Assembly: GCA_038064735.1 (NCBI GenBank)
Contig: JBBTSI010000010.1
Coordinates: forward strand, 1-63,131
Source of the DNA: Patescibacteria group bacterium
GTDB lineage: Bacteria; Patescibacteriota; Minisyncoccia; Phycocordibacterales; WO2-35-19
Reading direction: 5' to 3'
Length of the DNA stretch: 63,131 bases
A program made the translations under genes and the position numbers. Positions 4,773-62,130 of this stretch are shown one piece after another (within the stretch, counting starts at the first letter, position 1; the number at the start of each line of letters is the position of its first letter). The notes under the pieces are model-generated. The model searched no databases, was not told where the DNA came from, and was given only the letters and a program-made list of their open reading frames with translations.

Positions 4773-4886
4773 ATGAATCCCGTTAGAAATTGCGGAAATT
4801 AAAAATGAGTAATTCGTATTATTATTTAATAATAAATAGAGAAAACATGCTTAGGTATGTAATTTCCTATTTCTAAACGGGATGAA
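4773..4886 (+). mobile_element. MITE-like inverted-repeat element, copy E1 (CCCGTTAGAAAT family) with ATGAA duplication
   Basis: ATGAA-T-CCCGTTAGAAAT-tgc-GGAAATT ... AATTTCC-t-ATTTCTAAACGGG-ATGAA. The second ATG is the start codon of the 4882 gene. About 85-90 percent identical by eye to copy E5. Confidence 0.75.
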
Positions 4887-6582
4887 ATCAAAAATTACAT
4901 CCTTTTTTAATGCTTTATTTGCAAAAATGAAGTATTCGGAAAAAATATTTTTTTATATTGTTTCCTTAATTGCTATCGTAAGCGGTATAACGCTTTTATT
5001 CCAAATCAATAATTTATTTTTAGTTGAAGTGCCAGTTTCCGGCGGTAGCTTCACAGAAGGTATTGTTGGTTCTCCCCGATTTATAAATCCGGTATTAGCT
5101 ATTTCAGATACTGACAAAGATTTGTCTTCCCTTATATATTCAGGACTTTTAAAAGTTTCTGGTAATGGCGGTTTTGAAGTAGACTTGGCAAAATCATACG
5201 AAATTCAAAATGACGGCACTGTTATAGATTGCGTAATAAAAGACAATGCTTATTTTCACGATGGCAAAGCGGTAACCACTGATGATGTTATTTTCACTAT
5301 TGAAAAAGTTTTAGATGGAGTGGTCAAAAGCCCCAAAAAAGCTAACTGGGATGGAGTTTTGGTAGAAAAATTAAGCGATAAAGAAATCAAATTCACTCTA
5401 AAGAAACCTTATGCTCCTTTCCTATCAGCTTTAACTTTAGGTATTTTGCCCAAACATGTATGGGAAAAAGTTTCTTCAGAAGAATTCCCTTTTAGCGAAT
5501 TTAATATAAACCCAATCGGTTCCGGCCCTTACAAAGTAGAAAAAATTGGCAGAAATTCTGGTGGTATACCAAACATAATTACTCTATCTTCGTGGAAAAA
5601 ATATGTTTCCGGCGAACCAAAAATAAGTTCAATTGTTTTTAAATTTTTTCAAAACGAAACTGAGCTCGCAAAAGCTTACGGAGACAAAAGTATAGAAAGT
5701 ACATCTGGCTTAAACCCAACTTCTTTGAAAAAAGTGAACCCAAACAAAGACAATATTAATGAAGTTACTTTGCCGAGAGTTTTCGGTGTATTCCTCAATC
5801 AAAACACCGATGCTGTATTTTTAAATAAAGAAATCCGCCAAGCCTTGGAAATATCCGCCCCCAAGAAAAAAATAGTAGATGAAGTGCTTTTTGGATTTGG
5901 TAAAATACTAAGTGGTCCAACACCTGCTGATATAGAAGAAGATCCTCAAAAATCGGAAGGTAACATAGAAGCCGCCAAAACATTACTCTTAAACAGTGGC
6001 TGGAAAGCAAATAGTGATGGAATATTAGAGAAAAAGACCAAAAAAGATACTGTTTCTTTCAACTTCTCCATTTCCACTTCCGATGCACCTGAACTCAAGG
6101 CCACCGCTGAAATTTTAGCGACTACATGGAGACAGTTGGGTGCCTCAGTGGCAGTAAAAGTGTTTGAGGCCGGAGATTTGAGCCAAAATGTCATTAAACC
6201 AAGAAAATATGATGCCTTGCTTTTCGGTGAGGTAGTTGGAGCCGAAAGCGACCTTTATCCTTTCTGGCATTCTTCAGAACGCAATGATCCTGGACTCAAT
6301 ATTTCACTTTACACCAATATCACCGTCGATAAAGCATTGGAAGATATGCGAAAAGAAACCGATATTCAAAAACAACTTGCCAGTAAAAAAATAATAGTTT
6401 CAGAAATTAAAAATGATGTGCCAGCTATTTTCTTGTTTTCGCCCGATCTTTTGTACATCAAATCACCTAATGTAAAAAACGTCACTCTAAAAAATATTTC
6501 CTCTTCAAATGAAAGGTTCCTTTTTATTGATAAATGGTTTATAGAAACCGACAAAGTTTGGAGTTTTTTCGTTAAAAACTAA
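4882..6582 (+). CDS. ABC transporter substrate-binding protein, family 5 (peptide/nickel type), membrane-anchored
   Basis: 566 aa; N-terminal TM anchor, then a region typical of SBP_bac_5 proteins (FTEGIVGSPRFINP...YFHDGKAVTTDDVIFT). Confidence 0.75.
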   Translation: MKSKITSFFNALFAKMKYSEKIFFYIVSLIAIVSGITLLFQINNLFLVEVPVSGGSFTEGIVGSPRFINPVLAISDTDKDLSSLIYSGLLKVSGNGGFEVDLAKSYEIQNDGTVIDCVIKDNAYFHDGKAVTTDDVIFTIEKVLDGVVKSPKKANWDGVLVEKLSDKEIKFTLKKPYAPFLSALTLGILPKHVWEKVSSEEFPFSEFNINPIGSGPYKVEKIGRNSGGIPNIITLSSWKKYVSGEPKISSIVFKFFQNETELAKAYGDKSIESTSGLNPTSLKKVNPNKDNINEVTLPRVFGVFLNQNTDAVFLNKEIRQALEISAPKKKIVDEVLFGFGKILSGPTPADIEEDPQKSEGNIEAAKTLLLNSGWKANSDGILEKKTKKDTVSFNFSISTSDAPELKATAEILATTWRQLGASVAVKVFEAGDLSQNVIKPRKYDALLFGEVVGAESDLYPFWHSSERNDPGLNISLYTNITVDKALEDMRKETDIQKQLASKKIIVSEIKNDVPAIFLFSPDLLYIKSPNVKNVTLKNISSSNERFLFIDKWFIETDKVWSFFVKN

Positions 6583-13404: not shown

Positions 13405-15057
13405 TTAAATTTTCTTATTTTTCAGACATGCTTCAATGAAAGCCGAGAAAAGAGGGTGCGGATGGAGCGGTCTGGCTTTTAATTCAGGATGAAATTGAGT
13501 ACCGAGGAAAAATGGATGTACTTCTTTGGGAAGCTCGGCAATTTCCATAAGCCGGCCGTCAGGTGAAGTACCGGAAAAAATAAGACCAGCTTTTTCTATT
13601 TCAGTTACATATTCCGGATTAACCTCATATCTATGTCTATGTCTCTCACAAACATTTTCTGATTGATAAGCATTAGAAGCGATAGTCCCATTCTTGAGAT
13701 TGGCTGGATAAGCTCCAAGACGCATCGTAGCGCCGTATTTGTTTTCGGCCAAAAGCTTTTTTTGCTCCGGCATTATGTCTATAACCACATGACTTGAATT
13801 TGGATTAATTTCAGCAGTGTTAGCGTCAAGCCAACCAATCATATTTCTGGCATATTCAATAACTGCCAGTTGCATACCATAACAGAGACCAAGATAAGGG
13901 ATTTTATTTTTCCTAGCATACTCTATAGCCATAATCACACCCTCTATACCAGATTCACCAAAACCGCCCGGTACAATGACACCGTCGTAATTTTTTAACT
14001 CTGTTATTTTTCTGTTTCCGGTTTCGTATTCTTTAGAATTTATCCAAGTCAATTTGGTCTTGGCATCTTTCCAGATAGAAGAAAACTTGATGGCTTCAAT
14101 CACCGAAACATAAGCATCGGAGAGAACGAAGTCTCCAGTATCAAAATATTTGCCGATGACTGCGATTTGTAATTCTTTTTTGGCCCGGCTTCTTTTATGA
14201 ACGAAATCTTTCCATTCTTTCATACTGTTACCGTTGGTCCTTGAACGCAGATGGAAAATTTTCAAAATAATACTACTGATTTTATCTTTTTCAAAATTAA
14301 GCGGTACATCATAAACACTTTCTATATCTGGTGCCGAAATTACATTTTCTGGAGCGAGAGCGCAAGCCATGGCAATCTTCTCTTTGCGTTTAAAATCCAG
14401 CGCTTGAGTGCCACGAGCAATAACTATATCAGGTTGAACACCATAAGAGTTGAGTTGTCTGACTGCATTTTGAGTTGGGCGGGTTTTCATTTCGCCAAGC
14501 GAGCCCGGTACCGGCAAATAACTCACCATCACAAAAATGACATCTTGAGGATATTTTATTTTGAGAGTACGGGCGGCTTCAATAAACAAAGTATTTTGAT
14601 AATCGCCTACCGTACCACCAATTTCAATGAGCGAAATATCAGACTCGTGAGAATCGGCCGCTTTTTTAATGCGTCTCAAAATTTCATCTGTGATGTGCGG
14701 AATAGCTTCTACGCATTTGCCTTTGTAGCCCAGATTGCGTTCCTTTTCAATGACATACTTATAAATCATCCCAGAGGTCATATAATCCTCACTATTGAGA
14801 TCCATTTCCAAAAAGCGCTCATAGTTGCCCAAATCTTGATCGGTCTCCAGACCCGAATCAAGCACGAAAACTTCGCCGTGTTCAGTCGGATTCATATTAC
14901 CAGCATCCACATTTAAATAAGGATCAATCTTGATAGGATTGACCTTGAAACCTTTGCTTTGAAGAATCTTACCTATTGATGATGACGCAATTCCCTTTCC
15001 CACTCCAGACATAACACCACCTATTACAAAAATATATTTGTGATTCTTTTTTTTCAT
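13405..15057 (-). CDS. pyrG: CTP synthase
   Basis: 550 aa; KYIFVIGGVMSGVGKG...; glutamine amidotransferase part with GLCYGMQ and HRHRYEVN. Confidence 0.96.
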   Translation of the reverse strand: MKKKNHKYIFVIGGVMSGVGKGIASSSIGKILQSKGFKVNPIKIDPYLNVDAGNMNPTEHGEVFVLDSGLETDQDLGNYERFLEMDLNSEDYMTSGMIYKYVIEKERNLGYKGKCVEAIPHITDEILRRIKKAADSHESDISLIEIGGTVGDYQNTLFIEAARTLKIKYPQDVIFVMVSYLPVPGSLGEMKTRPTQNAVRQLNSYGVQPDIVIARGTQALDFKRKEKIAMACALAPENVISAPDIESVYDVPLNFEKDKISSIILKIFHLRSRTNGNSMKEWKDFVHKRSRAKKELQIAVIGKYFDTGDFVLSDAYVSVIEAIKFSSIWKDAKTKLTWINSKEYETGNRKITELKNYDGVIVPGGFGESGIEGVIMAIEYARKNKIPYLGLCYGMQLAVIEYARNMIGWLDANTAEINPNSSHVVIDIMPEQKKLLAENKYGATMRLGAYPANLKNGTIASNAYQSENVCERHRHRYEVNPEYVTEIEKAGLIFSGTSPDGRLMEIAELPKEVHPFFLGTQFHPELKARPLHPHPLFSAFIEACLKNKKI

Positions 15058-15165
15058 CCCGTTAGAAGTAGGAAATTATTTACTCTGACATTCTCTCCCC
15101 ACTAAAATTAAGCTATTAAAGTAATTTCTCATATTTTGATTTCCGTGACTTCTAACGGGATTCAT
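15053..15165 (-). mobile_element. MITE-like inverted-repeat element, copy E2, with ATGAA duplication
   Basis: On the gene strand: ATGAA-T-CCCGTTAGAAGT-cac-GGAAAT ... ATTTCC-t-ACTTCTAACGGG-ATGAA. The proximal ATG is the pyrG start. Both arms carry the same G/C change. Confidence 0.75.
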
Positions 15166-27523: not shown

Positions 27524-27833
27524 TGCGGGGTAGAGTAATAGTAACTCGCGAGGCTCAATAATGGTGGGCCCATGGTTGAGTAATCAATCATTGCAAATTT
27601 GCCAAATTCGGAGAACTCCTCTCTGTTTCATCAACAGAAAGACAATTCCGAGCTAAATTCAGTTTAATTTTTTAAATTCAACTGATAAATGTGTAGAGAC
27701 TAGATGGCGAAATTCCAAGTTTTTAATTTGGAAGATGGTATAGTCCAGACCCCAAACTCCGCCAAGCGGAGATGTTGAAAAACATAGTGGTAAGCATAAC
27801 CTTGAAATTTTGGTGCAAATCCAAACTCCGCAA
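27524..27833 (+). tRNA. intron-containing tRNA(CAU): exons 27524-27555 and 27795-27833
   Basis: Joined exons give TGCGGGG-TA-GAGT-AATAGTA-ACTC-G-CGAGG-CTCATAA-CCTTG-AAAT-TTTGG-TGCAAAT-CCAAA-CTCCGCA-A (71 nt). The D loop lacks GG and the T loop is TGC instead of TTC. Confidence 0.7.
27556..27794 (+). ncRNA. group I self-splicing intron (Azoarcus-like, IC3-type core)
   Basis: CAAATTCGGAGAACTCC...GACAATTCCGAGCTAAA (P4/P5/P6), GTGTAGAGACTAGATGGCGAAA (J6/7-P7-P3), P8 TTCCAA/TTGGAA, AAGATGGTATAGTCC (P7 3' strand), P9 hairpins CTCCG-ccaa-CGGAG and ATGTT-gaaa-AACAT, terminal G at 27794. Confidence 0.85.
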
Positions 27834-27849
27834 CACGAATGTGACTTGT

Positions 27850-39917: not shown

Positions 39918-40967
39918 TTATAACATTTTTTCCAGAGACCTTGGATTGGTGGAATAAAGATAAGCATTTTCAATACTGATTTCGCCTTTATTTACCTTTT
40001 CAACCAAACATCTGTTGAAATCAATCATACCATCTCCAGAACTGGTTTCGATAATGGTGTTTAATTCGTGAGTACGTTTGTCGCGGATAAGATTGGAAAC
40101 AGCAGTGTTGTTTATCAAAAGTTCATAAGCCGGAGTAAGACCGCCTGATATTTTAGGGATAAGTCTTTGGGAAAAGATGCCGGAAAGTGAAGCCGCGAGT
40201 TGGATACGAATCTGATTTTGTTGAGTAGCATCAAATGAGTCTATGATACGATCGACAGTTTGAGCCGCATTGTTGGTGTGCAAAGTAGAAAATACCAAGT
40301 GACCGGTCTCGGCAGCAGATACGGCGGCAGACATAGTCTCGGCATCCCTCATCTCCCCTACCATAAGCACATTGATATCAGCCCTGAAAGCATCTCGGAG
40401 AGCCACTGCAAAACTCGGTGTGTCCATACCAACTTCCCTTTGGAAAATAATAGATTTTTTGGAATCAAATTGATATTCTATCGGGTCTTCAATGGTAATT
40501 ATGTTTTCTAACCTTTCTTCATTTATAGTCTGAACAAGAGAAGCTAAAGTAGTCGATTTGCCGTGACCAGTCGGGCCAACTACCAAAAAGAATCCCGATT
40601 TTAATCTGGCAAAATTATTCAAACTTTCCGGAAGATTTAATTCTTCAATGGTAGGTATATTTTTAGCAATATGCCTTAAAGTCAGACATATCTTGCGTTG
40701 TTCCAAAAACACATGAGCCCTAAACCTCTCCCCTTTGTGAGCATAAGCAAAATCGGCGCTTTGAGAAGTCTCGAAAGTATTTTGTTTCAAATCAGAAAGA
40801 GTTTTCTTTAAAATATCCTCCATATCCGCTTTGGTCGATTTTGAATATTTGGTAAGAGGCACCAACTGGCTGGCAATCCTGATGTAAGGAATCCTATCTT
40901 CAGAAAGATGCAAGTCCGAAGCACCTTCTTTAATTACAAGTTCTATGAGTGTATCTAAATCTTCCAT
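39918..40967 (-). CDS. pilT: twitching-motility retraction ATPase PilT
   Basis: 349 aa; Walker A GPTGHGKSTT; Asp box and His box typical of PilT. Confidence 0.88.
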   Translation of the reverse strand: MEDLDTLIELVIKEGASDLHLSEDRIPYIRIASQLVPLTKYSKSTKADMEDILKKTLSDLKQNTFETSQSADFAYAHKGERFRAHVFLEQRKICLTLRHIAKNIPTIEELNLPESLNNFARLKSGFFLVVGPTGHGKSTTLASLVQTINEERLENIITIEDPIEYQFDSKKSIIFQREVGMDTPSFAVALRDAFRADINVLMVGEMRDAETMSAAVSAAETGHLVFSTLHTNNAAQTVDRIIDSFDATQQNQIRIQLAASLSGIFSQRLIPKISGGLTPAYELLINNTAVSNLIRDKRTHELNTIIETSSGDGMIDFNRCLVEKVNKGEISIENAYLYSTNPRSLEKML

Positions 40968-41050
40968 CCCGTTAGAAATTAATTTGTTTGTTAATAATAT
41001 TTTTAATTTTTGTAAGCATAATATTTTTTGTTATTTCTAACGGGATCCAT
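40963..41050 (-). mobile_element. MITE-like inverted-repeat element, copy E3, with ATGGA duplication
   Basis: Gene strand: ATGGA-T-CCCGTTAGAAAT ... ATTTCTAACGGG-ATGGA. The proximal ATG is the pilT start. The distal ATG lies 1 nt after the stop of the response-regulator gene. Confidence 0.75.
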
Positions 41051-43251: not shown

Positions 43252-43533
43252 TTAAATCTCCAAGAAAGGATTTTCCCTTCCAACAGGCAGAGATATCAAA
43301 GGAGTTTCAATACTCTTAAGAGATTTGAATTTTTGATCCTCTATTATACCTGTATCAAATTTTATATTTTCGACCTGTTGCAACAAAGCTTCCACTCTCG
43401 CGCTAGCTGTAGCATTTTCATCAATAGAAGAAGTATCACTTGGTGGTGCAAGCATAACTTTATAAGCTACAATCAAAAGCCCTACAAGTACTAGGCCCAA
43501 AATAATAGATCTTTTATTTTTTGAATCTTTCAT
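43252..43533 (-). CDS. small membrane-anchored protein in the pilus operon (PilP-like position)
   Basis: 93 aa, one TM helix; location only. Confidence 0.4.
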   Translation of the reverse strand: MKDSKNKRSIILGLVLVGLLIVAYKVMLAPPSDTSSIDENATASARVEALLQQVENIKFDTGIIEDQKFKSLKSIETPLISLPVGRENPFLEI

Positions 43534-43600
43534 CCCGTTAGAAATTTATTATATTTTAACATTTTTTTAAATTTCCCATTAGATTTCTAACGGGATTCAT
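43529..43600 (-). mobile_element. MITE-like inverted-repeat element, copy E4 (shortest), with ATGAA duplication
   Basis: Gene strand: ATGAA-T-CCCGTTAGAAAT ... ATTTCTAACGGG-ATGAA. The proximal ATG is the start of the 93-aa gene. Confidence 0.75.
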
Positions 43601-45373: not shown

Positions 45374-46483
45374 TTACAACTCCTGCAAACAACGGAGGGC
45401 AGCACCAACAGCGACGGTGAATTCGGGGCCGGTTTCTTTGAGAACATTTTCGAGAAAAGCTGGTACTTCTACTTTTTCAAATGGATTACCAGCGATAACT
45501 TCAACTTTAAAATTTTGAGCAGCCAAATCACGGAAACCTTTGAGAGCTGATCCACCACCGGTCAAAAATACCGATTTGATATTTTCGTTCGTCTTTTTTT
45601 GGAAATCAAAAAGGAACCTATTGGCTTCAGAAAATACGTTGGAAGCAATGACAGAAACCGCTTCGGATAGATCGATCCCCTCTTTGGTCACACCCATACC
45701 AATAGATCTTTTCATTACTTCTGCATCTTCCACAGAAACATTCAAAATCCTAGCAATATTGGCGGTAATTTCTTGAGAACCGGTGTTTATCGTATGTGAT
45801 TTATAAATAAGCCCACGGTCTATGATGTAAAGTTTGGTGGTAGAAGCTCCCATATCAAAAATCATAACCGGACCTTGTACTCCTTCCAAAACCGCACGGA
45901 TGGTACTGAAAACCTCTATTTCAAAAAATCTGGTGGACAAACCGGTTCTTTCGGTTATGTCTTTATATTGTTTAATGATGTTGTTATGAATAGCAACCAA
46001 GAGGATATCAACGGTTTTTATTTTGCTTTCATTTTTACCACTCCCAACAACAATTTCATTATTATCTCTTTTAGGAACAATAGACCAGTCAATCGTCACG
46101 TCGGAAATCGGCACTGGGATATATTTGCGGGCTTCAATATTTACCATAGTACCCATTTCTTTCTCCCCCACATCGGGCATTTGTATAATAGATAAGAGTG
46201 ACGCTTTGAAAGGAATAGCAAAACCGCAAGTTTTGGTCGTCAAAGCCACTTCCTTTTCGGAAAGCAAATCACCAACTGCCTGCGCTATTTTATCGGTAGA
46301 CAAATTAGTAGATTGACCGATAGAAACGCCACCATAAGAACCCAAAGAAAGTTCACCATAAGTTTCGAGTATAGCTTTATCACCTTTCTTTTTAAGCTGA
46401 ACTACTTTGATAGAAGAGGAGCCGATATCGATGCCCAAAGCACTAATAGTCTTCTTTTTAAAAATATCGGAAAAGAAACTCAT
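45374..46483 (-). CDS. pilM: type IV pilus assembly protein PilM (actin-like ATPase fold)
   Basis: 369 aa; ALGIDIGSSSIKVVQL... and FDMGASTT... phosphate motifs. Confidence 0.85.
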   Translation of the reverse strand: MSFFSDIFKKKTISALGIDIGSSSIKVVQLKKKGDKAILETYGELSLGSYGGVSIGQSTNLSTDKIAQAVGDLLSEKEVALTTKTCGFAIPFKASLLSIIQMPDVGEKEMGTMVNIEARKYIPVPISDVTIDWSIVPKRDNNEIVVGSGKNESKIKTVDILLVAIHNNIIKQYKDITERTGLSTRFFEIEVFSTIRAVLEGVQGPVMIFDMGASTTKLYIIDRGLIYKSHTINTGSQEITANIARILNVSVEDAEVMKRSIGMGVTKEGIDLSEAVSVIASNVFSEANRFLFDFQKKTNENIKSVFLTGGGSALKGFRDLAAQNFKVEVIAGNPFEKVEVPAFLENVLKETGPEFTVAVGAALRCLQEL

Positions 46484-46592
46484 CCCGTTAGAAATAGGAA
46501 ATTACATGCTCTATGCATGCTTTTCCTATTGTGATTAAATAATAATATAAATTACTCATTTTTTAATTTCCGCTATTTCTAACGGGACTCAT
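46479..46592 (-). mobile_element. MITE-like inverted-repeat element, copy E5, with ATGAG(T) duplication
   Basis: Gene strand: ATGAGT-CCCGTTAGAAAT-agc-GGAAATT ... AATTTCC-t-ATTTCTAACGGG-ATGAGT. The proximal ATG is the pilM start. Confidence 0.78.
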
Positions 46593-54510: not shown

Positions 54511-54828
54511 TTATTTCAAATCTTCATCTTTTGGAATTCCCCACTGCCAGCGTGGCTTCTCACCTTTTTTGTAGCAAATAAGAATTAACAATATTACCGC
54601 CACCGCTATTTTTACGAAAAACCATGTCAGTGTAGTGTCTGTTGGCTCAGATCCCAGACTAAGCCCGTTCCAAACCAAAAAAGCAACGAAAGCTAAGATA
54701 ACCAGCCACCCCTGCCACTTGACCGGCGTCCAGCCCCAGCCATAAAGCTTCCTCTTGAACCAAAACCCTTCCGGATTATTTTTATAATATTCTTTGTATT
54801 TTTCAAACATATTTATCCCCACGACCAA
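54511..54828 (-). CDS. hypothetical membrane protein (YGWGWTP motif)
   Basis: 105 aa, two TM helices; the start may be the internal ATG at 54810. Confidence 0.45.
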   Translation of the reverse strand: MVVGINMFEKYKEYYKNNPEGFWFKRKLYGWGWTPVKWQGWLVILAFVAFLVWNGLSLGSEPTDTTLTWFFVKIAVAVILLILICYKKGEKPRWQWGIPKDEDLK

Positions 54829-54829
54829 C

Positions 54830-55090
54830 TTAGCTTATAAAAATACTTTCTTTTATCCTAACTTTAAGTTGAGCTAATGCTCTGCCATCTAATTTTAGAT
54901 TATGCTCCCTTTTTCTAGCATCACTCTCTGAAGTGTATGATTCATAGTATACAAGATTAAATGGGGCTCTGCTTTTTGTTGAACGCGCTTTTCCTGAATT
55001 ATGTTCTTGAAAGCGTCTCTTTAAGTCATTAGTTGAACCCACGTAAAGATTGTTATCTTTTTTACTTTTCAAAACATATACGTAGAACAT
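54830..55090 (-). CDS. GIY-YIG nuclease superfamily protein (stand-alone domain)
   Basis: FYVYVLKSKKDNNLYVGSTNDLKRRFQEHN. Confidence 0.8.
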   Translation of the reverse strand: MFYVYVLKSKKDNNLYVGSTNDLKRRFQEHNSGKARSTKSRAPFNLVYYESYTSESDARKREHNLKLDGRALAQLKVRIKESIFIS

Positions 55091-55118
55091 AATTCTTAAG
55101 CTAAGTTGGTGTGGGGAT

Positions 55119-55517
55119 TTACCTATTTATAAAAGTAATAGTAAGTTGGAGGATAGTGGCAAAGGCAACCCAAAGCAAATACGGAGCTTGAGCATAAGCG
55201 ACGAAGCGTTGATGCGGCCAGATGGCGATTATTGCCCAGACCAGTGTCCCGAGGACGAGCAAGATATCGACGGCCGCGAGCAAATTATTTTGTAGCCCAA
55301 ACTGGATAGGTGTGAAAGCAAGATTGAAAACCAAATTCAAAATGAAAGGCAATAAAACAACGAAAGGAATCTGTTTTTTAAAAAACATAATGAAAACTTT
55401 GCCGAATGAAATAGCAATGAGGCAATAAAGGAAAGTCCATACCGGTCCAAAGAGCCACCCTGGTGGCGCCCAGCTTGGTTTGATTAATTGCGAATACCAA
55501 TTGTATGTGTTGTTCAT
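55119..55517 (-). CDS. tspO: TspO/MBR family tryptophan-rich sensory protein (short)
   Basis: KPSWAPPGWLFGPVWTFLY motif; 4-5 TM helices. Confidence 0.75.
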   Translation of the reverse strand: MNNTYNWYSQLIKPSWAPPGWLFGPVWTFLYCLIAISFGKVFIMFFKKQIPFVVLLPFILNLVFNLAFTPIQFGLQNNLLAAVDILLVLGTLVWAIIAIWPHQRFVAYAQAPYLLWVAFATILQLTITFINR

Positions 55518-55585
55518 ATTATTAGAAATTTAAAACTTAATAAATTGTTTAAGATATTGTCCCCGTGATTTCTAACGGGATTCAT
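55513..55585 (-). mobile_element. MITE-like inverted-repeat element, copy E6 (proximal arm decayed), with ATGAA duplication
   Basis: Gene strand: ATGAA-T-CCCGTTAGAAAT-cac-GGGGAC ... ATTTCTAATAAT-ATGAA. The mini-ORF stop TGA overlaps the tspO ATG (ATATGA). Confidence 0.65.
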
Positions 55586-62003: not shown

Positions 62004-62087
62004 TCAATCCCGTTAGAGATAATCTGCCTAGGGCAGGTGCCGAAACATAAGTTTCGGATCTTTAACGGGATCAATCCCGTTAAAGAT
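62004..62087 (-). mobile_element. divergent copy E7 of the inverted-repeat element (AGAGAT/AAAGAT arms), flanked by ATTGA, plus an extra third arm
   Basis: Plus strand: TCAAT-CCCGTTAGAGAT...ATCTTTAACGGGA-TCAAT-CCCGTTAAAGAT. Internal hairpins CTGCC/GGCAG and CCGAAAC-ataa-GTTTCGG. Confidence 0.6.
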
Positions 62088-62130
62088 AAAGAAAAGAACA
62101 CCTAAACGACCCCAGTCGTTTAGGTGTTCT
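62085..62130 (-). terminator. strong Rho-independent terminator after the Fic gene (stem related to the GAACGGCTCAACGAC family)
   Basis: AGAACACCTAAACGAC-ccca-GTCGTTTAGGTGTTCT; on the minus strand it is followed by TTTCTTTATC. Confidence 0.75.

Follow-up and report, generated by a model that had tools for sequence, protein, structure and literature searches.

The closest described system to the elements analysed here is Ssn/NTS (dRS3/NTS of Neisseria), in which Ssn proteins cut single-stranded DNA beside hairpins (Chenal et al. 2025, Nat Commun, PMC11893778). Its authors likened the NTS-ssnA-NTS layout to an insertion sequence and proposed that Ssn is a domesticated regulator of transformation (PMC11893778). 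Here we analysed a 63-kb stretch of DNA from a Zambryskibacteria-like CPR bacterium, hereafter the window, which contains seven gene-less hairpin copies of 61-104 bp. Our results suggest that these hairpins are probably non-autonomous MITE-type copies of a family of ~276-bp elements, widespread in the ultra-small Patescibacteria (CPR), whose complete members enclose a GIY-YIG nuclease gene.

The two systems have in common a single-domain GIY-YIG protein of ~90 aa (84 aa here), a gene bracketed by hairpin-forming inverted repeats that are also scattered as many gene-less copies, and stems with a TCCCG core and a conserved orienting 5' flank. By sequence comparison, the CPR nuclease is homologous to the Ssn-type hairpin nucleases: it shares 38% identity (E = 4e-12) with the product of a single-domain GIY-YIG gene immediately after an NTS hairpin, which was found by tblastn, while a regular-expression search for Ssn-like ORFs near NTS returned none. 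In the CPR element the two repeats pair with each other into a single hairpin around the gene, whereas each Ssn flank has its own small hairpin. The repeat sequences also differ, and the SRM consensus HGTCWYN(0-2)YYVSBRHN(0-5)WNVSBRGN(0-2)RNCYNB is not matched; its one hit in the window lies in an unrelated place, and shuffled sequences give 0-1. The insertion polymorphism, 4-bp duplication and start-codon placement reported here find no mention in PMC11893778, nor does CPR.

Like the MITEs Correia/NEMIS, RUP and Nezha, the CPR hairpins are 60-120 bp long, end in inverted repeats, duplicate their target, exist in many copies, derive by internal deletion from a longer coding element and are co-transcribed with neighbouring genes. 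Unlike those of MITEs, the parent element is ~276 bp long and its product is an 84-aa nuclease instead of a transposase of the DDE or serine type, and the target is the start codon itself, which the terminal base of the element joins. The smallest classical insertion sequences are ~600-700 bp. The HUH-Y1 elements IS200/IS605 and REP/RAYT are likewise very small, use short sequence-specific targets and have many gene-less palindromic derivatives, and their hairpins are recognised as single-stranded DNA, as we infer for the CPR hairpins; in contrast, the CPR elements have no HUH/Y1 protein and their short copies occur in both orientations. Moreover, IS200/IS605 elements make no duplication and carry separate subterminal hairpins, whereas the termini here pair with each other and a 4-bp duplication is formed. 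Rickettsia palindromic elements (RPE) are also ~100-bp palindromes in gene space that spare the gene, but they are translated in frame inside ORFs, while the CPR elements occupy the start codon, which they restore. Unlike the I-TevI and Seg homing endonucleases, the nuclease has no linked DNA-binding domain. The literature on MITEs and GIY-YIG proteins in CPR and on GIY-YIG transposases yielded no description of this element, and the sole full-text match to the repeat sequence was an unrelated carrot paper. A preliminary description, made from the sequence alone, did not recognise the hairpins as a described element class; a related system of a protein and hairpin repeats, Ssn/NTS, was described in 2025.

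All seven copies listed in the preliminary description are present in the window, where the half-site CCCGTTAGAAAT occurs 11 times with at most one mismatch (shuffle mean 0.40; 0/100 shuffles reach 11). Six copies have identical 5-nt flanks (ATGAA in four, ATGGA in one and ATGAG in one), and the proximal ATG is the start of the host gene in each, as had been claimed. Copy 1 (4773-4886, plus strand) is a short gene-less MITE-type copy at the start of an SBP_bac_5 gene. Its left flank is A+TGAA (4773-4777), the element runs from T to A (4778-4882), the right TGAA occupies 4883-4886, and the regenerated ATG at 4882 opens the host gene (4882-6582; ORF list and Pfam). The other copies lie on the minus strand. 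Copy 2 (15053-15165) is at the start codon of pyrG (CTP synthase, 13405-15057) with ATGAA/ATGAA flanks, copy 3 (40963-41050) at that of pilT (PilT-type ATPase, 39918-40967) with ATGGA/ATGGA, and copy 4 (43529-43600), the shortest with 72 nt, at that of a 93-aa ORF (43252-43533) with ATGAA/ATGAA. Copy 5 (46479-46592) occupies the start codon of pilM (45374-46483) between ATGAG/ATGAG, and the decayed copy 6 (55513-55585) that of tspO (55119-55517) between ATGAA/ATGAA. The pyrG and pilM orthologues without the element start at the same ATG. A response-regulator gene ends 1 nt before the upstream ATG of copy 3, which places this copy at a junction inside an operon, and a PilO-like gene ends 2 nt upstream of copy 4, another within-operon junction. 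Copy 5 has a TATAAT box 8 nt before its upstream ATG, a position that indicates a leaderless promoter. Copy 7 (62004-62087) is composite, intergenic and off start codons, ~26 nt upstream of a MazG-like gene. It consists of a solo right end ATCTTTAACGGGA, TTGA, a 61-nt copy TCCCGTTAAAGAT…ATCTCTAACGGGA and TTGA; its flanks are (A)TTGA, and it is one of 7 family members without an A before the 4-bp duplication.

Folding as single-stranded DNA gives a 14-bp terminal stem in five copies, with z-scores from -3.6 to -6.7 (copy 1, -4.45; copy 4, -6.07; copy 5, -6.72). Copies 1, 2 and 5 form one subfamily, and the right arm of copy 1 contains a 1-nt bulge. The preliminary description gave all seven copies the same termini. 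The terminal repeat of copy 2 is a compensated variant, AGAAGT/ACTTCT, in which both arms are altered and pairing is kept, and copy 6 has lost its right CGGG (arm mutated, …ATTTCTAATAAT) and has no terminal stem (z = -0.72). The second inner stem, GGAAAT/ATTTCC, which had been ascribed to most copies, is present in only three of the seven. An Rfam search of the whole window at gathering thresholds matched tRNAs and a group I intron only, leaving the hairpins unmatched.

The element reads T-CCCGTTAGARAT…ATYTCTAACGGG-A, with a 13-bp terminal inverted repeat. Across 157 members, the terminal repeat is 93-100% paired at positions -1 to 12, position -1 not having been used to find them. The base before CCCG pairs with the base after CGGG in 146 of the 157 members (T..A in 134, C..G in 12), and these outer bases are therefore part of the element. 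Thus, the flanks do represent a target-site duplication as suggested, with a single copy held at empty sites, but its real length is 4 bp (TGRR), preceded by A, rather than 5 bp. The 4-bp duplication is found in 83 of the 134 T..A members. Counted with the A, its length is 5 nt in 67 copies, 4 nt in 7 and 6 nt in 5; a non-A precedes the left TGRR in 7 cases, which demonstrates that the terminal A belongs to the element. The same host gene carries T..A ends with an ATG start in one locus (L211) and C..G ends with a GTG start in another (L240). Variants of the repeat are AGAAAT, AGAGAT, AGAGTTTT and GTAGTAG. Short copies without an upstream ATG, solo ends and footprints also occur. The inverted termini, the duplication with empty sites, the dispersed non-coding copies and a longer coding element, by which MITEs are recognised, are all found here, with the reservation that the enzyme of the longer element is not a recognised transposase.

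Comparison of filled and empty orthologous sites demonstrates that the element is mobile. At pilM, two loci (L401 and L402) share the left flank of the window copy and have one ATGAG directly after it, 18 further loci are empty, and another subfamily has inserted independently in L408 and L409. At pyrG, where the window has its copy 2, L130, L126, L121 and L122 are empty; L150 has the empty counterpart of the insertion in L151, and other subfamilies fill the pyrG start codon in L123, L127, L137, L151 and L184. At ftsX, 8 loci are empty and 3 are filled. The pilM, pyrG and ftsX sites thus collapse to a single ATGRR when empty, as predicted. One host gene exists in empty, short-copy and complete-copy states in different genomes. 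Genes occupied recurrently across genomes are pyrG, ftsX, pilM and the MQFKVPQ gene, and the same start codons have been struck independently by different subfamilies. Copies in relatives behave alike, 67 of the 74 with duplicated ATG flanks adjoining an ORF start. The earlier idea of a transposon-derived hairpin whose surviving insertions regenerate the start codon is supported by these data, with the refinement that the last A of the element completes the ATG.

The longer element with the same terminal repeats that had been envisaged does exist, and it carries a GIY-YIG gene, not a classical transposase. The complete element is ~276 bp long, and its terminal repeats enclose an 84-codon gene for a single-domain GIY-YIG nuclease (Pfam PF01541, residues 3-69, E = 2e-15 for the protein of a 275-bp copy), which is the sole ORF inside complete copies. 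Homologous genes lie between these repeats in 69 of 80 loci from GTDB species genomes. The short copies share their ends with this gene, their right ends matching its 3' end (…TTCCTATYTCTAACGGG), and the right repeat encodes the invariant C-terminus …GASYL and the stop codon, which is 4 nt before the host ATG. The proteins form at least 1493 clusters at 90% identity, and the nuclease gene is under purifying selection (median dN/dS 0.11). Up to three copies are present per genome, at different genes, and are 85-92% identical to each other; this within-genome divergence of 8-15% means that no very recent burst is seen. The AF2 model (pLDDT 91) shows one compact GIY-YIG domain whose fold is matched best by UPF0213 proteins and by the nuclease domain of Slx1. 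The nuclease is 38% identical to the UPF0213 protein BH0048 and matches the fold of the I-TevI catalytic domain weakly (E ~0.7).

The window itself contains no nuclease gene with the repeats of the hairpin family, in agreement with the earlier statement that no transposase with matching ends is present. However, a complete element of a sister family, the sole GIY-YIG element of the window and one with different repeats, is found at 54815-55118 on the minus strand, between the tspO stop codon and the ATG of the next gene (54810). Its 86-aa GIY-YIG gene (54830-55090) encodes a protein 47% identical (E = 2e-21, tblastn) to the nuclease of the CCCGTTAGA family. The terminal repeats of the sister element are ATCCCCACACCAACTTAGCT and AGCTAAGTTGGTCGTGGGGAT, with flanks gTAAA-T…A-TAAAt, and have no second copy in the window.

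Start codons are occupied well beyond the window, with 60 short copies at ORF starts in other loci. ATGRR is found at 90 of 111 occupied starts compared with 31 of 79 window gene starts (p = 4e-9), and 6 of the 79 window genes carry a start-codon copy. Part of the bias towards start codons is due to this preference for ATGRR targets, given that 90% of the genome is coding. With target preference alone and coding insertions purged by selection, 0.6 of copies are expected at starts, and the six window start copies have p = 0.047 under this preference-only expectation, which counts against the model proposed below. Short copies have no preferred orientation with respect to the host gene (29 one way, 26 the other); only complete copies are co-oriented, in 50 of 50 nuclease-gene copies at ORF starts. 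Targeting of leaderless transcription start sites was likewise rejected, since a strong -10 box 5-9 nt before the upstream ATG is found at 26 of 79 occupied genes and at 17 of 63 unoccupied window genes and is thus not enriched. Copies 3 and 4, as noted above, lie within operons. Replication-strand bias was discarded, as there is no change in the sign of GC skew in the window, yet copy 1 is on the opposite strand. An integron attC-like site, which GTTAGAA/TTCTAAC resembles in its core sites, was rejected because the motif order is inverted relative to attC.

The upstream reading frames are open in many copies: starting at the upstream ATG, 18 of 46 short copies can be read without a stop as far as the right repeat, compared with 4 of 92 control frames (p = 5e-7), and across the right end all three frames either stop at the host ATG or enter it in frame. 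In the six start-codon copies of the window, the upstream frames all stop early in the loop, and the re-initiation model therefore fails to explain the expression of these genes. A Shine-Dalgarno-like motif precedes 3 of 63 window genes. The anti-SD motif is missing in many Parcubacteria (PMC9297842). The right end, read for an outward promoter or ribosome site, contains no consistent -10 or Shine-Dalgarno-like motif. Since the lineage hardly uses Shine-Dalgarno sites, an insertion would disrupt no site-to-ATG spacing. Ribosomes starting at the old ATG would read through the element; frame one would stop at the TAA of the right repeat, 4 nt before the new ATG, frame two at the overlapping ATGA, and frame three would continue in frame. 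Ribosomes would then re-initiate on the host ORF and keep it expressed, and complete copies would borrow the host promoter and start context for their nuclease gene.

We propose the following model for the movement of these elements. The element inserts between the A and the TGRR of an ATGRR target and duplicates TGRR. Its terminal A gives a right junction …CGGG-A-TGRR, which rebuilds the host ATG and the start of codon 2, and the original ATGRR stays on the left of the element. With 90% of the genome coding, the surviving copies are those on start codons. The nuclease, the presumed mobilising enzyme, may bind single-stranded DNA at the folded repeat hairpin and its 5' ATGR flank, cut beside the hairpin and act in trans on gene-less copies, and joining could be carried out by host enzymes. 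The family may represent an unrecognised autonomous DNA transposon class, with an 84-residue GIY-YIG nuclease as its sole protein, that evolved to parasitise start codons; this reading is slightly less likely than not. Several observations count against the proposed model, among them the early stops in the upstream frames of the six start-codon copies of the window and the lack of a nuclease gene with matching repeats in its 63 kb. To our knowledge, no GIY-YIG enzyme performs strand transfer, and a fixed 4-bp duplication is the classic mark of DDE transposases. About 10 start-codon copies have the left flank ACYTG without a duplication, the duplication at one orthologous target varies between 4, 5 and 6-7 nt, and the divergence between copies of one genome, which speaks against a very recent burst, belongs here too.

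One alternative is that the hairpins are true MITEs moved by a conventional DDE or HUH transposase, whose gene would lie within TCCCGTTAGA…TCTAACGGGA, the GIY-YIG gene being a passenger or homing coloniser. The regular 4-bp duplication with 13-bp terminal repeats is textbook DDE behaviour, the two orientations of short copies are those of symmetric cut-and-paste, and GIY-YIG nucleases hydrolyse DNA, with no joining activity that we know of. However, repeat pairs 330-7000 bp apart (200 loci) enclose only separate neighbouring copies, and no other candidate gene is found in ~2 Mb of loci, CPR genomes being ~1 Mb. The GIY-YIG genes, in contrast, lie exactly between the repeats at the 69 of 80 loci, with stop codon and C-terminus built into the right repeat, and are under strong purifying selection across copies, and we consider a conventional transposase unlikely. 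It is also quite unlikely that the element is a homing-endonuclease cassette that breaks start-codon regions and is copied in by repair from a filled copy, the apparent duplication being repair microhomology. I-TevI has the same fold, many genomes are occupied at the same genes (pyrG, ftsX, pilM and the MQFKVPQ gene), and the variable duplication length at one target, some mismatched left flanks, the solo ends and the footprints would all suit such a cassette. Against it, the modal duplication is very uniform, the 84-aa single-domain protein has no homing-type DNA-binding domain, and gene-less copies of many subfamilies have spread to unrelated genes of one genome, which indicates ectopic insertion and not allelic homing.

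The near-invariance of the terminal 13 bp in CPR lineages that are very far apart, where a change on one side is matched on the other, the exact placement relative to the start codon and the over-representation of type IV pilus genes (pilT, pilM and the 93-aa ORF) among the window targets could also mean that the hairpin serves the host in regulation, for example as a 5' stabiliser, as a translational operator or as a tag of a regulon to which a conserved protein binds, and is kept at chosen genes rather than being selfish. This is very unlikely, given that close relatives lack the hairpin at the same genes and are otherwise unchanged, that different subfamilies share sites, that copies decay (copy 6, footprints) and occur in both orientations, that the full-length form encodes a nuclease, and that no Rfam family matches. 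Matched, co-varying 5-nt sequences around a stable hairpin are reminiscent of translational bypass, as in T4 gene 60 and the yeast mitochondrial byp elements, in which ribosomes would hop from the first AUGRR to the second. Yet the target duplication seen in filled/empty pairs fully explains the matching flanks, there is no coding upstream of the first AUG and thus nothing to bypass, and element-free orthologues start at the same ATG. In addition, some copies have no upstream ATG, and the 18 of 46 copies with a frame open through the hairpin favour read-through over hopping, making bypass extremely improbable.

If the 84-aa nuclease moves the element, GIY-YIG would be added to the DDE, HUH, serine and tyrosine enzymes among the catalysts of DNA transposition, and the size floor for autonomous elements would drop about threefold. 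Ssn-type nucleases gain evolutionary evidence of mobility, in the form of filled and empty sites and a duplication; in the 2025 paper, mobility was a hypothesis only. A small nuclease with a hairpin-plus-ATGR site may also be a candidate single-stranded-DNA tool. For genome annotation, the upstream duplicated ATGs lead to false N-terminal extensions and spurious small ORFs, such as MNPVRN… peptides and 92-aa nuclease variants starting MNPVRD.

Selfish DNA weighs heavily on CPR genomes, which are regarded as streamlined, and it is placed at the base where a gene is most sensitive. This load bears on how translation starts in CPR, where it is leaderless and without Shine-Dalgarno sites. Were the transposon-class reading true, no other self-sufficient mobile element known from cells would be as small as this one of ~276 bp. 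It would target ATGRR between A and TGRR, contribute the A of the new ATG (or the G of GTG), borrow the host promoter and start context for its own gene, and be arranged so that each of the three frames either ends at the host start or leads into it. Together with its gene-less derivatives, it would occupy several per cent of CPR gene starts (6 of 79 here), a lifestyle that may be possible only through initiation without Shine-Dalgarno pairing.

The hairpins of the window are members of a CPR-wide family, the presumed autonomous form of which is a 276-bp GIY-YIG cassette living on start codons. All seven copies listed in the preliminary description were found, at 4773-4886 on the plus strand (copy 1) and at 15053-15165, 40963-41050, 43529-43600, 46479-46592, 55513-55585 and 62004-62087 on the minus strand (copies 2-7). 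The half-site CCCGTTAGAAAT occurs 11 times in the window at ≤1 mismatch, compared with a mean of 0.40 in shuffled sequence, and none of 100 shuffles reached 11. Six copies are indeed bracketed by identical 5-nt sequences (ATGAA, ATGGA or ATGAG), and the proximal ATG of each opens a real gene, encoding an SBP_bac_5 protein, CTP synthase, PilT ATPase, a 93-aa ORF, PilM and TspO. Five copies form a 14-bp terminal stem as single strands (z-scores -3.6 to -6.7), and the right arm of copy 6 is decayed. The inner GGAAAT stem is real, but it is confined to one subfamily (copies 1, 2 and 5) and not present in most copies as had been stated. Copy 7 consists of a solo end (62075-62087) plus a copy, has TTGA flanks and lies in an intergenic spacer. 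A terminator-like hairpin at ~62088-62127 on the minus strand (acacctaaacgac…gtcgtttaggtgt, then a T-run) adjoins its 5' side, where the upstream gene ends.

The preliminary description had interpreted the flanks as the target-site duplication of a transposon-derived element, and filled and empty orthologous pairs at pyrG, ftsX and pilM agree with this. The window pyrG reads …tagtattatgagtggg ATGAA[element]ATGAAaaaaaag, while pyrG of another genome (L130) lacks the element and reads …tagtatgctgaaaggg ATGAAAAAAAAG; in a second pair, L150 (empty) and L151 (filled) differ solely by the element and one ATGAA. The ftsX start is filled in 3 genomes and empty in 8. The left flank of the window's pilM insertion (gattatcccagataaaatcattatgctataataataca/cctt) recurs in two groundwater contigs, L401 and L402, where just one ATGAG comes after it, and 18 more relatives are empty at this gene. 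Empty sites at pyrG and pilM thus collapse to one ATGRR, as had been predicted. The pilM start of L408 and L409 bears an independent insertion of another subfamily (TCCCGTAGTAGAAAATGGC…) with ATGAG on each side, and the pyrG start has received insertions of at least 4 subfamilies. As judged from these pairs and from the repeated hits by different subfamilies, the element is mobile and the flank repeat is its target duplication.

Some copies contain a gene. A 275-bp copy in another genome (L086, the same as L201) has the same repeats and ATGGG flanks and contains an ORF, MFYYTYVLKSRKDGKLYTGST…, which encodes a GIY-YIG domain (Pfam E = 2e-15). Homologues of this protein are 80-88% identical and 83-92 aa long and fall into no fewer than 1493 clusters at 90% identity, every named source of which is CPR. 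The gene lies between CCCGTTAGAGAT and ATCTCTAACGGG in 69/80 loci from species genomes, with a complete element size of 273-283 bp. The right repeat adjoins the ATG of the host ORF, and the nuclease gene points in the same direction as the host gene in 50/50 cases. The invariant C-terminal residues of the nuclease (…NRLGASYL) are also encoded by this repeat, as is its stop codon, which precedes the host ATG by 4 nt. At the other end, annotated 92-aa variants start with MNPVRD, MDPVRD or MGPVRD; such N-termini are the duplicated host ATG and the left repeat read in frame. A genome may hold up to 3 complete copies at separate genes. Their mutual identity is 85-92%, compared with a mean of 74% between random pairs, and the median dN/dS is 0.11 (413 pairs).

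In short copies, the right-end similarity extends into the 3'-terminal part of the nuclease gene (…TTCCTATYTCTAACGGG), and some still encode its C-terminal residues (…GASASYF-stop). Across genomes, one host gene is found in all three states: empty, carrying a short copy, or carrying a complete one. Five short copies of 110-118 bp (L045, L094, L114, L068 and L095) keep an ORF of 38-44 codons (MNPVRNRG…RIGFGR…ASYF-stop), the end of which is a remnant of the nuclease C-terminus; these peptides differ between genomes yet stay open. The window also holds a complete element of a sister family (54815-55118, minus strand), with 20-bp repeats ATCCCCACACCAACTTAGCT that differ from those of the copies and an 86-aa GIY-YIG protein 47% identical to their family's nuclease. 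It is flanked by gTAAA|T…A|TAAA, sits between the tspO stop codon and the ATG of the next gene, and has no short copies in the window. Elsewhere, at 27524-27842 (+), a group I intron (Rfam RF00028, 66.5 bits, 27546-27771) splits a class II tRNA-like sequence (5' half GCGGGGTAGAGTAATAGTAACTCGCGAGGCTCAA; 3' half ending …GGTGCAAATCCAAACTCCGCA), probably tRNA-Leu by its sequence, for which ARAGORN made no call.

The element ends were defined with a catalogue of 157 family members drawn from all loci. The base before CCCG is complementary to the base after CGGG in 146/157 (T..A in 134, C..G in 12), a position that played no part in finding the members, and arm positions 10-12 show paired changes on both sides. 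Thus, a 13-bp repeat bounds the element, which reads TCCCG…CGGGA. In 76 of the 83 T..A members whose 4-bp duplication is exact, A lies 5' of the left duplication copy. The other seven (G-TAAA, C-TGAA, T-TCAA and the like) nevertheless have A-TGAA, A-TAAA and so forth on the right side, which proves that the A there belongs to the element. C..G variants lead to GTG starts, and one host gene carries a T..A copy with ATG in L211 and a C..G copy with GTG in L240. Insertion thus splits the start codon between its A and its TG, and the regenerated codon takes its first base from the element. TGAA is duplicated in 48 members, TGGA in 18 and TGAG in 6, and the duplication length is not constant at one target.

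About ten start-codon copies, L211 and L240 among them, have a left flank of ACYTG(T), ACTGG or ATCTG without a duplicate of the host ATGNN, with a -10-like box 3-9 nt upstream; decay of a duplication does not account for these flanks. Solo right ends (…AACGGG or …AACGGA) stand directly upstream of ATGAA with the rest of the element missing (L129 and L143, both at the pyrG start, L109, L274, L095 and window 62075-62087). Imprecise loss could have left them as footprints, or they may be tandem or abortive insertions. Head-to-tail tandem copies sharing one duplication occur in L025 and L213.

The window is 90% coding, and its ATGRR sites comprise 33 at gene starts (6 occupied), 508 inside coding sequence and 22 elsewhere. 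Random insertion over all these sites would place six of six copies at starts with p = 4e-8; if all coding-sequence hits are lethal, a copy lands at a start with a chance of 0.6, and p rises to 0.047. Across all loci, 67/74 copies with duplicated ATG flanks adjoin an ORF start (p = 5e-9 against 0.6; p = 7e-4 against 0.75). The target is narrower than ATG, with ATGRR at 90/111 occupied starts versus 31/79 gene starts generally (p = 4e-9), and TGAA without a preceding A, including harmless TGA-A stop codons, is almost never used (7/83). These data are best read as a 5-nt target preference, A|TGRR, which matches the commonest start context, together with purifying selection.

How might the host gene still be translated? 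A Shine-Dalgarno-like motif precedes 3/63 window ATG genes, so insertion breaks no Shine-Dalgarno-to-ATG spacing; the anti-SD motif is missing in many Parcubacteria (PMC9297842). A near-consensus TATAAT lies 5-9 nt before the ATG in 17/63 window genes (27%), implying that many of the mRNAs would be leaderless, and occupied genes do not differ from others in having a strong -10 box near the ATG. At pilM, TATAAT-N8-ATG is kept in 20 relatives. The sequence across the right end is TAA-CGGG-ATG-A. Depending on frame, a ribosome that began at the old ATG would halt at the TAA, 4 nt short of the new ATG, halt at the overlapping ATGA, or already be in the host ORF frame; all three outcomes are present (10, 5 and 3 copies, respectively). 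The old-ATG frame is open across the entire short copy in 18/46 cases, versus 4/92 in the other two frames (p = 5e-7), an excess that points to selection for read-through and then re-initiation on the host ORF. In complete copies, the nuclease ORF itself terminates at the right-end TAA. In the six window start-codon copies, the old-ATG frame stops early in the loop, and their host genes would have to be initiated internally.

The window CTP synthase shares 80-91% identity with its counterparts in metagenome-assembled genomes of Candidatus Zambryskibacteria and other Parcubacteria. In an exact scan of one genome per species, ATCCCGTTAGAAAT inverted pairs 50-130 bp apart are almost confined to CPR lineages, including Nomura-, Taylor-, Jorgensen-, Kaiser- and Doudnabacteria, Paceibacterota and 'Saccharibacteria'-labelled assemblies, and these pairs have ATGRR flanks as well. 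The family, complete copies included, also occurs at 13 loci of assemblies labelled Planctomycetota, Omnitrophota, WOR-3, Scalinduaceae and Syntrophales, with several copies lying away from ORF starts. These occurrences may reflect horizontal transfer or binning error.

The AlphaFold model of the nuclease (pLDDT 91) shows one β-β-α-β-α-α domain. Among solved structures, it best matches UPF0213 protein BH0048 and the nuclease domain of the structure-specific endonuclease Slx1, and I-TevI is a weak match. The closest system in the literature is Ssn/NTS, in which Ssn proteins, each consisting of a single GIY-YIG domain, bind to hairpin repeats (NTS/SRM) and cleave single-stranded DNA immediately on the 5' side of the repeat (Chenal et al. 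2025, PMC11893778). The ssn genes are bracketed by NTS/SRM repeats in a layout 'identical to' an insertion sequence, and the 5' flank of the hairpin sets orientation and is required for cutting; CPR, start codons and target sites are not mentioned (PMC11893778). The published SRM consensus has no match in the window repeats. A single-domain GIY-YIG protein of a gammaproteobacterial assembly is 38% identical to the CPR nuclease (E = 4e-12), and the exact NTS next to its gene ends 5 nt before the ATG (L363:947-1184). The window hairpins belong to this recently described kind of GIY-YIG nuclease with hairpin repeats, as a variant. The exact Neisseria NTS motif was found in >120 loci (L281-L400) of many phyla, including Proteobacteria, Dehalococcoidia and Planctomycetes.

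Together, the observation and interpretation of the preliminary description hold, and the finding is larger in extent than described there. Short copies occur in both orientations (29 versus 26), so insertion is symmetric, and we infer that complete copies are strictly co-oriented with the host gene because selection favours their expression from its promoter. By analogy with Ssn, the nuclease is the candidate mover. Like Ssn with NTS, it would recognise the folded repeat in single-stranded DNA together with the 5' ATGR flank and cut at the element boundary, and host enzymes would complete the joining. Against this proposal, GIY-YIG enzymes are not known to have any joining activity, and the regular duplication resembles that of a DDE transposase. 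If the nuclease proposed here is shown to be the transposase, the family would represent a new class of transposon.
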